Positions 24,661 through 30,940 are shown, counted from the first letter of the stretch. The stretch is DNA of 64,000 nucleotides from a bacterium (GCA_963669175.1 OY769902.1:3968001-4032000); one strand, 5' to 3'. Notes: generated by a model not told the origin, from the sequence alone. Program-made: numbers and translations.

Positions 24661-27600
24661 ATGCACCGTTGCTACCGTTTTCTGATTACTGCGATAGTCC
24701 TGACAGGTATCTTTTCCCTTCCCGCTTCTGGCGAAGTGTACGAGACCGGCTCGTTACGTGGTTTCATCCTGGGTGATGAACCAGCCTGTGCCTACGACAA
24801 CTGGTTTTCTCGTACCGTCGAAGGACTCGCAGTTGATGGTGGTTATAACGACCATATCCCCCCCGAACTTGATCCGCAAACACGTGGATTCGGGAATTTC
24901 GAATACATCGAAGAAGAAGATGCGGGCACCATGGAAGCGCTATGGCTGCATCTTTTTCAGGCATTGTGGCTCGGTGACCATGAGACGGCTGAAGGATTAA
25001 TCGGTGAGAATGAACTCCCTTACGAGTTTGTCTATTTCACAGACACAGAGACGGGCAATCAGTATTACATGTTGCGTGAATTGATTAACACCGCCTATGT
25101 GGATACAGGTTTTTACGCCGGTCCTGAAGATGATGTGATCGGCGGATTCGATTACGGTTGGGGTTTGTACATTGTTAATCCGGACGCTGAGTATCCGGGC
25201 GTAAATATCCAGGTTTGCCACGTCAATGACGACTTCATTGCCCCACCTTATGCCGTTGAGGCATTCCTTGAAGGTGATTTCAATTCACTGGCGCTTTGGG
25301 GAACCGGACGTGAAGTCATGTCGGTGGAAGGTGAAGATTACAACAACAGTCGTTCCCTGTCTGACCCGTCGCGAAACGGCAACCTGCCGTTCCAGTGGTT
25401 TACCGAGTTTTTCGTGGATACAACACGGAGCCAGGGACTGCATGACCTGGTAATACAGGTACACAGTTATGACACTGAATCCCACAACGGCGAGCCAACC
25501 CTGCAAGTCAGCGGCGGCAATGCAGACGGCTATCCGAACCGTCCCACACGCGACCTGTCCTATACGGGTTTTGATTGGGTGAATTGCTGTCCGACAATTA
25601 TGGTTCCGGCCAATTATTGCATGGAAGGTCAGGAGGAAGTTGAAGTCCAGGAAATGTTCGCCATCTGGCGTGGTTGGGGTGTCACTCACATTGAAAGTGG
25701 TGCAGGTATTTCCCGTGATTGCTATTTACCAGGATACCCGGACAGTCCGCAGATGTGGACTTGCAGAGAGAACACCAATTCTTATGAGACCTATGATCAC
25801 TGGCTGCATTTTGAATTGGATGAGCTTCCCTGGGCTTTGCAGGATGCTGAAATTACCGAGCTTGAATACTACGCCGGCACAGCGCCGCCAACAGAAGCGA
25901 ACTGGGCTGCATTTCTTCGCTATTTCGAGACAAGTTTAGAAGGCCTGGTTCAGAGCGTACATAACATGTACGAGTACCTGGATGAGACACCGCCAACCGC
26001 ACCACAATCTCCCTATATCTACTATGCCGGTGATAACTTCATGGAAATCGGCTGGAGTACACGTTCCTATGATCCCTATTTCCAGGCCTATGAGGTTTAT
26101 TTCGGAACCACGGAAACTATTAATCTGGACAACACTCTCTGGACAATACAGAACGACCCGAACCTGGTAGGGCAAAACCTTCAGTATACACGCGTTGAAG
26201 GATTGACACCCATGCAGAGTTATGGATTCCGGGTACGCGGTGTTGACATGTCCGGCAATGTGAGTGAATTGAGTACTGCGACCGCTTGGGGATTCAGCCA
26301 GGAAGGCAGCGCTTCTCCCCTGGCATTTGACCTGTTTGCACCGACCAGCGGCGACACCTGCCATACCCTGGATACGACACTGGTCTGGTACAGCACATCT
26401 GACCCGGATTTGTACGATATCCCCCGTTATGATGTATGGATGGATACGCTGGCAAACATGTCAACCATGTGGATGGTTGCGGATGGCGACAGCATCCAGG
26501 ATACTACAATTGATGTCAGCGGCCTGCTGAACTTCAAGGATTATTACTGGACTGTTCGCGCCACGGACCGGAACACGGAAGGCACATGGGCCAACGACAC
26601 CCTGTCTTTCCGGACCTACCGCCCGGTTCCACCAGCCGAATTCACGCAGGATTACCCGCTTGAACGCTCAACATTGTGGAACGTGGAAGAAACAGACCTG
26701 GTTTGGAATTCAACCTACGATCCGGATGGACTGGCCGATATCACTTACCAGGTATCCTGGGCAACAAATATAGAATTCACAGAGAATTACGGTTCATTCA
26801 CGACAACTGACACATTCACAACAATCGACGATCTGGAAATCAATGCTACCGTGTATTGGAGGGTCTTGGCCTGGGATAACCTGGACACGACCTGGACCGA
26901 CACATGGCGCTTTTATACCTGGACACCGGACTACCCAGAGTTTTCTCTTGACACTCCGACTGACGGAGAAACTGTCCTCAATGATACAGTAACAGTGACC
27001 TGGACTGCCCCGGAAACATCCTACCTGCCTGAAGATTTTGCATTGGCCGAACTGGATGAACAAACGTACGTAAATGCAGCCTTTGCTGACCTGCCAAAGG
27101 GGTCTGAGATTGCGTTCGGGGCTGGTGAATCCGAGCTGGATGATCATGGCGGTCCGGATTCCTTCGGACATGTCTGGATTGACAACAAGGAGCATGGCGG
27201 CCCGGCATTTGACTGGGTGGACATTTCCGAAATTGGAACCCTTTCAGATGCAAGCAATATCGATGATGGTTGCGCTCCGGCGACAATCCCCTTCCCGTTT
27301 ACCTATTATGGTGAGGAATACGAAACTGTCCATGTCGGTTCGAACGGAAACATGAACTTCCTCACCTCTGATGATGCCGACTGGAGCAATAGTGGCATCC
27401 CGAATGACGATGGTCCCTCCGCCATGATCGCACCGTTCTGGTGCGACCTGCGTCCGAATTATCGTGGCGACATCTACACCTGGGGTGACTCAACCATGTT
27501 TGTGGTGTCCTGGCTGAATATCCGTCAATACAGCCACGAAGAATGGGATTATTATTTCCAGGTAATCCTGTACCCTGACGGTATGATCAAGTTCCAGTAC

Positions 27601-29118
27601 CTGAACATGGACGGGGACCTGGATATCGCCTGTATCGGTATAGAGAACGGTGATGAGGATGACGGGTTGCAGGTTGTATACAATGCAGCGTACCTGGAAG
27701 ACAGGATCGCGATCCTCTTCACACCGGATGATTACCTGTATACGGTTGAATGGTCCGCTTCGGCAGAATTCGCACCCTCTACCCTTGAATACACACTGGA
27801 TAATGAATTCACCATTACCGATGTGGAAATTCAACAATTCCTTATACAGAACAGGTTGCTGGAAGAACTGGATGAACTTCCCGATGATATAACCATTTAC
27901 TGGCGTGTGAACACACGTAACTTGTACAGTCTTCGGAGTTTTGCAGCTCCCGGTATTAACGGCCAGACCTTCACAGTCTTTGTCCCGGAACCGCCGGTCG
28001 CTTTTGATATGGCCTACCCGGCAAATGAAGACACCGTTGTAACAGATACAGTGACAGTTGGCTGGAATGCAGCGTACGATCCAGATCCTGACGACACGTT
28101 GACGTACGTCGTTCAGTGGTCCCAAAACAGTGACTTCTCCGATTTTGCTGTGGCGACAACCCAAGATACTTTCCTGATCCTGACCGGAATGGATATGGAA
28201 GTATTCACCAGAAGCAACAGCTCAGAGTTTGCATCGGTTGCCCGTAAAAAGACGGCGCCACAAGCCATGCAGGTTAAGACCAAAAATCCATCCAAGGCCA
28301 GACAGATCTCGGGGACTGCCTTGTCAGGTGGTGCAACAGCGAATACACTTGACGAACTGGATGAGCTCCCGGATGACAGCCATATCTTCTGGCGGGTACA
28401 AGCGGTTGATGAGCTGAGAAACAGCGTATGGGCCAACCAGGGCACAGATGGCTGGTGGTTCCATGTGCAGGTGCCGGAACCGCCGCCTGCGTTCGCGCTA
28501 CTGGAACCGGAAAACGATGACACACTGGCTGTCGAAGAAGCCACCCCGGCCACACTTCGCTGGGAAGCGGCGAATGATCCGGACCCGAACGAAACAACCA
28601 GTTATAACCTGTATTACCAGTATACTCAGGGACAGGATACGGACACACTTTACTATAGCGATTTAGCAGACACAGCACTCGTCATCAACCTGGCGGACTC
28701 GCTGGGGATTGAGTATTGGGAAGAAACAATACAGGTCACCTGGTGGGTGCTGGCCGGTTCAGAAAATGACACAACGCAATGCGATGAGGATTTCATCTTC
28801 CACATCGCCCCGAATTCAGCAGTACCGGAAAAACCATTTGCAGGGATGCCAACGGAATACAGTATCGCAGCCCTGTACCCGAATCCGTTCAACCCGACAG
28901 CAACTGTGGTCGTGGGATTGCCCCAGGCCAGCCACCTGAAAGTACAGGTATACAACATTCTCGGTGAACTGGTTGAAACGGTTGTCAACAACGATATGCG
29001 AGCGGGGTATCACCGTCTGATCCTTGAGGGATCGAACTGGGCTTCCGGGCTCTATTTTGTTCGTGCCGAGAGTCCGGGACAGATGAATGAAGTACAGAGG
29101 ATTTTCCTGGTCAAATAA
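24661..29118 (+). CDS. Large T9SS-secreted multidomain protein (putative N-terminal Zn-hydrolase domain, FN3/Ig-like repeats, CTD)
   Basis: 1485 aa with a signal peptide, repeated YW.V.A FN3-like modules, a GGPDSFG module and a C-terminal LYPNPFNP...SGLYFVR sorting domain. Confidence 0.9.
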   Translation: MHRCYRFLITAIVLTGIFSLPASGEVYETGSLRGFILGDEPACAYDNWFSRTVEGLAVDGGYNDHIPPELDPQTRGFGNFEYIEEEDAGTMEALWLHLFQALWLGDHETAEGLIGENELPYEFVYFTDTETGNQYYMLRELINTAYVDTGFYAGPEDDVIGGFDYGWGLYIVNPDAEYPGVNIQVCHVNDDFIAPPYAVEAFLEGDFNSLALWGTGREVMSVEGEDYNNSRSLSDPSRNGNLPFQWFTEFFVDTTRSQGLHDLVIQVHSYDTESHNGEPTLQVSGGNADGYPNRPTRDLSYTGFDWVNCCPTIMVPANYCMEGQEEVEVQEMFAIWRGWGVTHIESGAGISRDCYLPGYPDSPQMWTCRENTNSYETYDHWLHFELDELPWALQDAEITELEYYAGTAPPTEANWAAFLRYFETSLEGLVQSVHNMYEYLDETPPTAPQSPYIYYAGDNFMEIGWSTRSYDPYFQAYEVYFGTTETINLDNTLWTIQNDPNLVGQNLQYTRVEGLTPMQSYGFRVRGVDMSGNVSELSTATAWGFSQEGSASPLAFDLFAPTSGDTCHTLDTTLVWYSTSDPDLYDIPRYDVWMDTLANMSTMWMVADGDSIQDTTIDVSGLLNFKDYYWTVRATDRNTEGTWANDTLSFRTYRPVPPAEFTQDYPLERSTLWNVEETDLVWNSTYDPDGLADITYQVSWATNIEFTENYGSFTTTDTFTTIDDLEINATVYWRVLAWDNLDTTWTDTWRFYTWTPDYPEFSLDTPTDGETVLNDTVTVTWTAPETSYLPEDFALAELDEQTYVNAAFADLPKGSEIAFGAGESELDDHGGPDSFGHVWIDNKEHGGPAFDWVDISEIGTLSDASNIDDGCAPATIPFPFTYYGEEYETVHVGSNGNMNFLTSDDADWSNSGIPNDDGPSAMIAPFWCDLRPNYRGDIYTWGDSTMFVVSWLNIRQYSHEEWDYYFQVILYPDGMIKFQYLNMDGDLDIACIGIENGDEDDGLQVVYNAAYLEDRIAILFTPDDYLYTVEWSASAEFAPSTLEYTLDNEFTITDVEIQQFLIQNRLLEELDELPDDITIYWRVNTRNLYSLRSFAAPGINGQTFTVFVPEPPVAFDMAYPANEDTVVTDTVTVGWNAAYDPDPDDTLTYVVQWSQNSDFSDFAVATTQDTFLILTGMDMEVFTRSNSSEFASVARKKTAPQAMQVKTKNPSKARQISGTALSGGATANTLDELDELPDDSHIFWRVQAVDELRNSVWANQGTDGWWFHVQVPEPPPAFALLEPENDDTLAVEEATPATLRWEAANDPDPNETTSYNLYYQYTQGQDTDTLYYSDLADTALVINLADSLGIEYWEETIQVTWWVLAGSENDTTQCDEDFIFHIAPNSAVPEKPFAGMPTEYSIAALYPNPFNPTATVVVGLPQASHLKVQVYNILGELVETVVNNDMRAGYHRLILEGSNWASGLYFVRAESPGQMNEVQRIFLVK

Positions 29119-29217
29119 GGAAATACTTCCGGTAGGTTTGGCGATTTGCTTCTTGTTTGCGACCTTTGTATTCGGGTTGGCAATCGGAAGCGATCGCGTA
29201 ACATGCTGGAGGACAAG

Positions 29218-30051
29218 ATGTTACATACTTCAACGAGCCTGTATGACCGGTGTATGGAGAAGACGCCGGAGCAGGTGTTTGTGAACTCGCTTCGTCGCGA
29301 GTTTGAGCTTTCACCGGCTGCGAGTACGGGGATATTGGAGCTTGCCAAGCGTTGTTTGTTCGGTACGATGCCGTCAACGCTTGGCAAGCTTCGTTTTTTA
29401 TGTGCGTCCAAGAAAGCTCGTCACGGTCGTCCCTTACGCGAACAAGACCTGATTCGTGTCGAACTGACACTGGATGACGGTGTTGAGGACTTGGATGTTC
29501 TGCGCGAACTGGGCGCTTCATCGCTTCGTCAGCAACGGATTCTTCGGCTAACCGAAGAGACGTACCAGCAGGGTGGGTTGCTGACACAGGAGGATCTGAG
29601 TCGTCTGCTGCACGTTTCAGATCGGACCATCCGCAAGGATATTGCGTTGCTGCTTGCTGACGGGAATACGGTGCATACGCGTGGCTACGACCATGACATT
29701 GGGCGTGGGTTATCGCACAAGGCACGGATCGTTGATTTGTACCTGGGTGGCCGGACCTATGATGAGATCATCCGTCTGACACGTCACAGCGCGTTTGCGA
29801 TCAAGCGCTATGTGAGTACGTTTGGACGCTTGTTGCTTCTGCTTAGCCATGACATTACCGAGCTGACCGACCTGAGCCGTCTGCTTCAACAGAGCGAACG
29901 GTTGACGGGTGAGTACCTGGATCTGTTTGCAAAATACAAACAGGGTGATCACTGGCCGACAAGCTATGTCGAACTTCTGGAGCAGTTGCAAGCACAGTAT
30001 CCCTCAAAAAAAAGAGCGGGACAAGGTGGCGGAGGCGTCCATGAAAACTGA
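29218..30051 (+). CDS. DUF1670-like protein A
   Basis: GGAGG RBS before the ATG at 29218. Motifs QQGGLLTQEDLSRLL (HTH), TRG..HDIG, SHK and H...RY. Confidence 0.85.
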   Translation: MLHTSTSLYDRCMEKTPEQVFVNSLRREFELSPAASTGILELAKRCLFGTMPSTLGKLRFLCASKKARHGRPLREQDLIRVELTLDDGVEDLDVLRELGASSLRQQRILRLTEETYQQGGLLTQEDLSRLLHVSDRTIRKDIALLLADGNTVHTRGYDHDIGRGLSHKARIVDLYLGGRTYDEIIRLTRHSAFAIKRYVSTFGRLLLLLSHDITELTDLSRLLQQSERLTGEYLDLFAKYKQGDHWPTSYVELLEQLQAQYPSKKRAGQGGGGVHEN

Positions 30052-30871
30052 GGTACGGAACCGTTATGAATCCCTGCCGAAGCGGAACTTTCGCACTGCG
30101 ATCATCCGGTTGTTGGAAGAGCAGTACAAGATTCTTGGCAGCCACAAGGTCTTGGCCATGGTGGCGGATGACATCATGCAACTGCACCGTGAGTTCTATC
30201 CGGATATCGAGCAACGCAGCGGTGGCAGTATTGTGTGGCGTACGACAGGTGCACAGTGCCACAAGCCCAGCTATGGGACACGGGTAGAAGACTATGAGGT
30301 GAAGACCGTCATTCTTCCGCTTGTCACTGAAGAAGATGTGGTTGATCGTATTCGTCGCCACTATGGAAAAGACGGTGCGGGCAAACAGCGCGACAGGGAT
30401 ATTGCAGTGCTGGCGCGGTTGGTGAAAAGCGCGTACGAACAAGGCGGGTTATTAAGCGGCGCGGAATTGAGTGTGTTGTTGAACCGGTCGCTGACGACCA
30501 TTGGCAAGTACATCCAACAGTATCATGAAACGCATGATGACATCCTGCCGACGAAAGGAATCATGTTGGACCAGGGAAGCCGTCCCACACACAAGGCCGC
30601 AATCATTGACCTGTACGAACAGGGCTATCCGGAACCGGATATCGCTCGCTTGACCACGCATACCCTTGAAGCGGTGGGTCGTTACTTGCGATCTTACAAA
30701 AACATCAAGTTCCTGATGGTCAAAGAACTTAATCTGATGGAAATTGTGCGTACTACCGGACTCGGACGTAGTACAGTGGTCCAATATCAGAAACTGGTGA
30801 TGCAGTATCATCCTGACCTTAAACCTAAAGATAAACAAAAAGATACAACGAAAAAGGACAAGAAAAAGTAA
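30041..30871 (+). CDS. DUF1670-like protein B (paralog of A)
   Basis: GGAGG RBS before the ATG at 30041, overlapping the end of A. Motifs EQGGLLS, PTKG..LDQG, THK and H...RY. Confidence 0.85.
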   Translation: MKTEVRNRYESLPKRNFRTAIIRLLEEQYKILGSHKVLAMVADDIMQLHREFYPDIEQRSGGSIVWRTTGAQCHKPSYGTRVEDYEVKTVILPLVTEEDVVDRIRRHYGKDGAGKQRDRDIAVLARLVKSAYEQGGLLSGAELSVLLNRSLTTIGKYIQQYHETHDDILPTKGIMLDQGSRPTHKAAIIDLYEQGYPEPDIARLTTHTLEAVGRYLRSYKNIKFLMVKELNLMEIVRTTGLGRSTVVQYQKLVMQYHPDLKPKDKQKDTTKKDKKK

Positions 30872-30940
30872 CCACTATCAACTGAAAACCTACCGGAAAT
30901 ATTTCCTAATAGTAAGTAGAACAGGTTTCAGATTCTAGAA

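Follow-up and report, generated by a model that had tools for sequence, protein, structure and literature searches.

A mobile element with two paralogous DUF1670 genes and a putative transposase of a new kind, with a conserved polar HTH motif as its best active-site candidate

To our knowledge, every well-studied prokaryotic transposase belongs to the DDE/DEDD, HUH, serine or tyrosine class. Tyrosine recombinases carry their catalytic residues in the order R-K-H-R-H-Y and place the crossover within a 6-8 bp overlap; XerC and XerD are two paralogous subunits of this kind. In the HTH pattern, a Gly separates helix 1 from helix 2, and there follow I-A in helix 2, a Ser/Thr cap and V-x-x-aromatic in helix 3, and a catalytic tyrosine is borne by the winged-helix domain of topoisomerase VI-A and Spo11. 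Here we describe an element in a bacterial genome whose only two proteins, A and B, belong to DUF1670 (PF07900), a family for which a literature search by name and accession found no report. The element lies in a stretch of 64,000 nucleotides (GCA_963669175.1 OY769902.1:3968001-4032000; hereafter the window), in which we distinguish the following features, all numbered from the first base of the window.

24661-29118, plus strand: target gene, whose product of 1485 aa has a T9SS type A sorting domain (ORF and TIGR04183)
29113-29118, plus strand: element-borne AAATAA (Lys codon and TAA), abutting the left inverted repeat on its outside (36 elements and the start of a unitig)
29119-29139, plus strand: left terminal inverted repeat, GGAAATACTTCCGGTAGGTTT, 21 nt (repeat search)
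29218-30051, plus strand: ORF A, DUF1670, 277 aa from a Met conserved in homologues (ORF and Pfam)
29713-29811, plus strand: motif in A, predicted as HTH2, with H172, K173, H195 and Y203 (model and alignment)
30006-30013, plus strand: A8 run, candidate slippage site, 35 nt before the stop of A (run present in 39 of 40 related elements)
30041-30871, plus strand: ORF B (P0001), DUF1670, 276 aa (ORF and Pfam)
30587-30685, plus strand: motif in B, predicted as HTH2, with H184, K185, H207 and Y215 (model and alignment)
30886-30906, plus strand: right terminal inverted repeat, reverse complement GGAAATATTTCCGGTAGGTTT, 21 nt (repeat search)
30907-30913, plus strand: TAATAGT, seven element-borne bases between right repeat and flank (17 of 36 elements)
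30914-30919, plus strand: AAG (Lys) and TAG (stop), with which the target gene originally ended, now displaced (Lys/Arg codon and stop in 34 of 36 elements)

At the window locus the element extends from 29113 to 30913, about 1.8 kb, and, as in an insertion sequence, several near-identical copies are found between terminal inverted repeats: the genome holds seven copies that are 99-100% identical and an eighth at 67%, and the 21-nt repeats (the tip of the left one is a near-palindromic 12-mer) stand at all 14 ends of the seven near-identical copies. Searching the whole genome for the repeat, with up to 4 mismatches allowed, returned these 14 ends and five degenerate or solo sites only, and the genome's 16 PF07900 matches are confined to the eight elements. 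In the contigs of the sequencing run the element is collapsed into a single unitig of 1803 bp (29113-30915), and the depth of the repeat contig is 156.8 compared with 28.6-29.1 in the flanks, a ratio of about 5.5. Neither a circle junction nor a contig bridging the element was found among the assembled contigs of the sequencing runs, and a tblastn search of a plasmid collection with B gave no match. Elsewhere in the phylum, the family is rare, with three carriers among 79 genomes. A search with a closer alignment (A4) brought up relatives in MAGs of Ignavibacteria, Bacteroidetes, Caldithrix and Balneolales and in 80 metagenome contigs, where one with B alone gave none; the DUF1670 family is also present in Methanosarcina. 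Thirty-six complete elements, from many samples, measure 1766-1989 bp between outer repeat ends and keep the two-ORF unit at 60-75% protein identity. Judged by eye from a table of their junctions, variants of the TAATAGT sequence appear to follow element lineage.

The target gene in the window encodes a protein whose last 100 residues match TIGR04183 (Por_Secre_tail; E 3.2e-9, 36.6 bits against a cut-off of 23 bits). All eight elements in this genome come after genes with products that end in a T9SS sorting tail of the form ...(L/V/M)(L/V)K, the TIGR04183 match being confirmed for the window gene and the 67% copy only. Among the 36 complete elements of the junction table (eight from this genome and 28 from elsewhere), 33 have AAATAA as the 6-mer immediately outside the left repeat, two have CGATAA and one has AAATGA. 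The 6-mer that begins 7 nt past the right repeat, on the other hand, is a Lys or Arg codon followed by a stop in 34 of 36 cases, spelt AAATAG (11), AAATAA (7), AAGTAG (5), AAATGA (4), AAGTGA (3), AAGTAA (2), CGATAG (1) or AGATAG (1). Since the left 6-mer is constant and the right one differs, we assign the left 6-mer to the element and read the right one as the native gene end, now displaced. The final codon and stop of the target gene, 29113-29118, are now supplied by the element, and the junction sequences place the element exactly before the last codon of a gene for a T9SS-sorted protein, where it restores the Lys-stop. A syntenic locus without the element exists in a genome of the same genus (G033) and does not define the junction, because identity is no more than about 70% there and the gene has AGG TAG as its end.

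These junctions also constrain how much sequence could be held in common by element and target. Left and right 6-mers are identical in seven of the 36 elements (in none of the seven near-identical copies of this genome) and differ in 29, which is not the pattern of a target-site duplication, and AA is common to both junctions in 34 of 36 elements, with nothing longer. As the junctions have only AA in common, an overlap or duplication of 0-2 bp fits, a 2-bp AA duplication being compatible with the data, and an overlap of 6-8 bp does not. Duplications of 3 bp (TAA) and of 5 bp (AAATA) were considered and dropped, for the left 6-mer is constant and the right one varies in the way native gene ends do. 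An earlier note on this DNA had argued that TAA would be a crossover core rather than a duplicated target if the two proteins had a tyrosine-recombinase-like active site. It was right to doubt the duplication, but with a constant left 6-mer facing a native codon plus stop on the right, TAA is not the crossover core either, and the 'TAA' on the right side is made up of the last T of TAATAGT and the AA of the native Lys codon.

A and B overlap by 11 nt and both match DUF1670 far above the PF07900 gathering cut-off of 25 bits (A: E 2.3e-45, 155.1 bits; B: E 1.4e-48, 165.6 bits). They are 36% identical over 143 residues (E 2e-14), a likeness that we attribute to paralogy. Residues of B are numbered as in P0001 and residues of A as in P0002, whose numbering begins at 29203 and whose M6 shows no variation in alignment A4. 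The strings on which the earlier note had built are present in both translations, as SHKARIVDLYLGGRTYDEIIRLTRHSAFAIKRY in A (P0002 residues 171-203, 29713-29811) and as THKAAIIDLYEQGYPEPDIARLTTHTLEAVGRY in B (P0001 residues 183-215, 30587-30685).

How the two ORFs might be expressed is suggested by a run of A8 to A10, which 39 of 40 related elements have at a distance of 13-45 nt before the A stop codon, the one other having A6. Relative to A, B is read in the +1 frame in 25 elements, including the window copy, and in the +2 frame in 15, and in one relative A and B form a single in-frame ORF. Conservation of the A8/A9 run suggests that an A-B fusion may arise by slippage, as in OrfA/OrfAB arrangements; IS3-family elements are reported to show slippage of this kind during transcription (PMC6211511; reviewed in PMC5009743). 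Prediction of an A:B complex gave a score of 0.34 compared with 0.00 for the best of three controls, which supports association weakly, given that 58 of 80 solved complexes reach the mark used, as do two of 110 mismatched pairs, and that at scores of 0.60 or under it is reached by only seven of those 80 and by both of the mismatches. The prediction runs, made with custom alignments, agreed on at least 79% of contacts, with a partner pLDDT of at least 67.

AlphaFold2 models built from family alignments (pLDDT 90.9 for B, 84.8 for A) give both proteins an alpha-alpha-beta-beta-alpha N-terminal domain followed by a winged HTH (HTH1), HTH2 and HTH3. The helices of HTH2 comprise residues 183-193, 198-205 and 209-227 in B, a layout that is repeated in A with residues 172-181, 186-193 and 197-215. 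According to the models, then, the motif is an ordinary three-helix HTH, the middle one of three HTH units in both DUF1670 proteins. The earlier note had read this segment as a divergent tyrosine-recombinase active site and had set a plain second HTH against that reading; as far as the fold is concerned, it is the plain HTH that is predicted.

Searches by structure and by sequence arrive at the same fold. When models of B and A were compared with 48,161 chains using VIA-align (50 matches considered for each), the best Z was 6.7 for B and 6.5 for A, and top matches were all of HTH type. Residues 181-229 of B match the HTHs of DesR (4ldz; Z 6.0, rmsd 1.7 over 49 residues), a phage small terminase (4xvn; Z 5.8, rmsd 1.3 over 47) and Tn3 resolvase (5cy1; Z 5.4, rmsd 2.2 over 45) as well as region 4 of sigma-28 (1rp3; Z 5.7, rmsd 1.5 over 48), and the HTH matches of this segment as a whole, sigma-E included, have Z 5.2-6.0 and rmsd 1.3-2.7 over 45-51 residues. 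In Pfam, HTH_28, HTH_23 and HTH_7 match the motif weakly and below their cut-offs (HTH_28 on the A motif, 29713-29811, reaches 20.6 bits against a cut-off of 25). A profile of 78 family members, searched against the sequences of solved structures, had the HTH 'CAP repeat' as its sole match with E below 0.5 (E 4.8e-8), the next two (E 0.52 and 1.4) being weak and neither of them a recombinase. The ESM Atlas returned clusters of HTH_23 and GerE only, with a top score of 0.81.

Within this fold, the T-H-K triplet of B caps helix 1 of HTH2. H207 falls, on our assignment, in the HTH turn at position 10 of the standard 20-residue numbering, and Y215 on what we take to be the buried face of helix 3, at position 18. 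Y215 lies on the hydrophobic side of that helix, alongside V212, I216, Y219 and V222, and this hydrophobic face, together with the hydrophobic residues found in its place and in place of H207 in degenerate units (see below), argues that Y215 is at least partly buried rather than an exposed nucleophile. HTH3 has a Tyr at the position equivalent to Y215 (Y249, in 112 of 130 sequences, with His in 15), so that a Tyr at this position may be a feature of this type of HTH.

The residues of the motif are nonetheless the best conserved of the family. Among 78 sequences with 20-47% identity to B, H184 and Y215 are the only invariant columns, and R126, G173, D177, G179, K185, H207 and Y249 are among those conserved in at least 90%; an alignment started from A agrees, with G161, D165, H172, K173, H195 and Y203 invariant. 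In 153 aligned domain hits, counting for each column the domains that have a residue there, H184 is kept in 140 of 145, K185 in 128 of 143, H207 in 132 of 138, Y215 in 131 of 135, D177 in 135 of 146 and R126 in 129 of 132; as far as the alignment reaches, these six are the most conserved residues of the family. Directly before HTH2 stands a conserved loop, R-G-x-x-x-D-x-G.

Fused proteins with two or three DUF1670 units provide further information on these residues. The first unit is degenerate in all five (P0149, P0151, P0159, P0160 and P0261), and these degenerate units change several of D177, G179, H184, K185, H207 and Y215 together, in various combinations: H207 is replaced in all four with the column aligned (by I, L, V and I), Y215 by I or W in three of four, H184 is altered in four of five and D177 or G179 in four of five. 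The later units listed retain H184, H207 and Y215, and middle units have A, I or M in place of K185. Residues that are dispensable for the fold and tend to go together show the pattern of a lost functional site, and their joint loss points to a functional site in the intact units. With D177, G179 and R126, the motif residues would make up a conserved polar site that is not needed by the fold, and we infer that they cluster in space. The earlier note was thus well guided in singling out these residues, which may well form a functional site, and mistaken in deriving them from tyrosine recombinases.

Could some other gene or domain provide the enzyme? The two ORFs leave little room between the repeats of the window copy, and three antisense ORFs in the element match no Pfam family and disclose no hidden third gene. 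Sixteen of the best 150 family representatives exceed 400 aa; of these, ten were scanned with Pfam and contain DUF1670 and HTH families only, and eight forms of about 430 aa (two of them among the ten) have the N-terminal domain of DUF1670 duplicated, so that no architecture with a known catalytic domain occurs in either set. PHROGs matches were limited to families of regulators or HTHs, none of them below E 5e-4, NCBIfam gave no match near any cut-off, and no DDE, HUH, serine-recombinase or tyrosine-recombinase chain is present among the 50 VIA-align matches each for B and A. Pfam, NCBIfam, PHROGs, PDB sequences, Foldseek and VIA-align thus yield matches of HTH type only, with residues 1-110 barely covered by the fold searches. 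Because no catalytic fold or motif of a known transposase or recombinase class was found, the argument that A and B are the enzyme is one of elimination.

We suggest the following model, which taken as a whole we consider reasonably probable. A and B, and probably also an A-B fusion, would be the element's own recombinase or transposase. They would bind the 21-nt terminal repeats and place the element, always in the same orientation, precisely ahead of the final codon of genes whose products are T9SS-sorted, with no target duplication or at most 2 bp in common, and thanks to the element-borne AAATAA the host protein would stay whole. As active site, the best candidate, chosen roughly by elimination, would be the conserved cluster in HTH2 and the loop that precedes it. 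The parts of this model do not stand equally firm: that A and B are the enzyme is quite likely, that the HTH2 cluster is catalytic has an even chance, and that Y215 in B and Y203 in A act as nucleophile is doubtful. Fold, conservation, joint loss, copy number and junctions can be read from the data; the catalytic role of A and B, and its location in the proteins, we infer.

There are a number of other scenarios. The least improbable of them, although still somewhat unlikely, is that the His-Lys-His-Tyr cluster has no role beyond binding (of DNA, a metal or a ligand) or a structural network within HTH2, with A and B recognising ends and target and a host enzyme or some other mechanism breaking and joining the strands. 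Every recognisable module in the two proteins is DNA-binding, and if the numbering we assume is correct, Y215 and H207 occupy positions of the hydrophobic core, as their hydrophobic replacements in degenerate domains and Y249 at the same position in HTH3 would also lead one to expect; moreover, ten tyrosine recombinases are encoded elsewhere in the host genome. However, several phyla contain this two-gene element, and Methanosarcina has the family too, which makes a common host partner unlikely, and the joint loss of residues in dead repeats resembles that of an active site. We also know of few pure DNA-binding domains that retain invariant His, Lys, His and Tyr at 20-30% identity, which we count against a role confined to binding.

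A bolder proposal, which we regard as doubtful, goes beyond the model in its chemistry: DUF1670 A and B, or their fusion, would represent a new class of recombinase or transposase made of HTH modules only, with its active site in HTH2 and a Tyr nucleophile, convergent with tyrosine recombinases. D177, H184, K185, H207 and Y215 with R126 would then be the active site and the two paralogues might divide the work as XerC and XerD do.

It is improbable that the element is non-autonomous, that is, that A and B correspond to the N-terminal DNA-binding part of a DDE transposase (IS630/IS3-like, HTH_23/28/29) and that the element is moved in trans by a full-length relative. The HTH families that A and B match weakly in Pfam are typical of IS630 and IS3 OrfA proteins, and the A-run with its OrfA/OrfAB layout resembles IS3 and IS1. 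On the other side, the repeat search gave the 14 copy ends and the five degenerate or solo sites only, the 16 PF07900 matches all fall within the eight elements, and the two-ORF unit has been conserved across 36 elements with no DDE partner.

This leaves homology to tyrosine recombinases. A and B have no PF00589 match at E of 1 or below, while the same model detects ten tyrosine-recombinase genes in the host genome. Aligned with hhalign against the catalytic domains of these ten, the 78 DUF1670 sequences gave a probability of 1.5% (E 0.033, 59 columns), in the very register of the earlier note, with H207 on the histidine of GH, Y215 on the catalytic Tyr and the THK triplet opposite a gap. Foldseek found no match in the PDB at E of 0.001 or below, and neither a recombinase nor a topoisomerase IB chain occurs among the 50 VIA-align matches for B or the 50 for A. 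As strings, the motif and box II of tyrosine recombinases are indeed alike, but their likeness is no greater than chance would give and provides no evidence of homology. That HTH2 is a true, diverged recombinase core (H-K for HxxR, H207 as box II His, Y215 as nucleophile, TAA as crossover core) is very improbable: hhalign selects exactly this register, the order R126...K/R172...H184-K185...H207...Y215 recalls the catalytic one, and two paralogous subunits and orientation-specific insertion free of target duplication would suit it, but against this stand the low hhalign probability, the missing PF00589 match, the THK triplet in a gap, a segment that is a 45-residue HTH within a run of three, and junctions that have AA rather than 6-8 bp in common and, in the true register, no TAA on the right.

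Returning to the model in which A and B move the element, we note that the element is clearly mobile, yet its only two proteins show none of the known transposase folds. If A and B are an enzyme, they would embody a new way of cutting and joining DNA, with a 21-nt end and a very precise target, and could become a tool. Even if they are not, insertion before the last codon with a Lys-stop of its own spares the host gene, which is unusual, as is the first functional context that DUF1670 gains here.

Compared with known systems, the element comes close to several. Tyrosine recombinases (XerC/XerD, Cre, lambda Int and TnpA/TnpB of Tn554) resemble A and B in the linear order Arg, Lys, His, His, Tyr, and resemble the element in a pair of paralogous subunits, oriented site-specific insertion without target duplication and an end that imitates the target. 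They differ in a catalytic domain of about 170 residues where A and B have a three-helix HTH that their profile does not match, and in holding 6-8 bp in common compared with 2 bp here; the element also has 21-nt terminal inverted repeats. Sigma region 4, LuxR/NarL, resolvases/invertases (HTH_7) and the HTHs of IS630 and IS3 OrfA have the same three-helix fold as HTH2, which matches the HTH pattern at each of the points given at the outset. Ordinary HTHs, however, have aliphatic or aromatic core residues where HTH2 has a His in the turn and an invariant Tyr, and HTH2 is preceded by the R-G-x-x-x-D-x-G loop and has no catalytic domain attached. With IS1 and IS3 the element shares overlapping ORFs, terminal inverted repeats, a large number of identical copies and an A8/A9 run before the overlap (39 of 40 elements conserve the slippery run), whereas the DDE/RNase H domain and the target duplication of 3-4 bp are missing here and the element is strictly target-specific. 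Topoisomerase VI-A and Spo11, finally, show that a domain of HTH type can bear a catalytic Tyr, since their winged helix does so. Topoisomerase VI-A (1d3y_B) matches the winged HTH1 (B: Z 6.3, rmsd 1.7 over 62 residues; A: Z 5.9, values near 6 being common for winged helices in VIA-align), but the match is to HTH1 and not to HTH2, HTH1 has no conserved Tyr and there is no Toprim in A or B. Set beside these systems, the element seems to have a transposase of a new kind, for which the conserved polar cluster of HTH2 is the best active-site candidate.

In genes encoding T9SS-sorted proteins, the element lies exactly 5' of the last codon, both in the window (29113-29118 and 30914-30919) and at loci L001-L008 and L030-L134, and the native Lys or Arg codon, together with its stop, is now found 7 nt past the element's right repeat. 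The AAATAA that closes the interrupted gene is brought by the element itself, with CGATAA instead in two elements, those in which the native codon that was displaced specifies Arg. Because each element supplies its own terminal codon and stop in this manner, the host protein is left unaltered.

Stray left-end repeats, and a locus without the element, are found at the following positions:

G000:C1:800638-800658, 2071164-2071184 (locus L009) and about 2946992: left-end repeats, solo or degenerate, immediately 3' of stop codons
L029 1054-1130 (genome G033): 9-nt GTAAAGAAA-like units repeated in tandem 3' of the gene's stop

At L009 the repeat follows a non-T9SS gene that ends in AAG TAA, and the left end of the element is retained there over about 158 bp, at 78% identity. 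The tandem units in G033, a genome of the same genus, lie at the syntenic locus, which carries no element.

Within the element and its relatives, four further features lie in the ends and in the two genes:

Window 29119-29130 and 30895-30906: 12-bp palindrome GGAAATATTTCC at the tip of each terminal repeat, the left copy with one mismatch
Window 29339-29390: within ORF A, an inverted repeat with perfectly matching 16-nt arms and a spacer of 20 nt
Window 30006-30013: run of eight A residues near the A/B overlap
L014 295-1752 (genome G005): single 485-aa ORF joining A and B in a relative

Since the repeat tips are palindromic, their sequence suggests that each element end might be bound by a dimer. 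A run of eight to ten A residues is kept in 39 of 40 related elements, with B in the +1 or +2 frame, a pattern which suggests that programmed slippage at the run may yield an A-B fusion. The fused ORF at L014 is truncated at its N-terminus and has Asp (GRD) in place of B's invariant Tyr; it is probably a copy in decay.

At position 30526 the window has T versus C in the contigs assembled from sequencing runs (a collapsed repeat contig), a mismatch that reflects variation among copies or strains. Larger DUF1670 architectures also occur: P0149, P0151, P0159 and P0160 (930-952 aa) each combine three DUF1670 units in one chain, the first unit being degenerate, and in P0230 and other proteins of about 430 aa the N-terminal domain alone is present in an extra copy.
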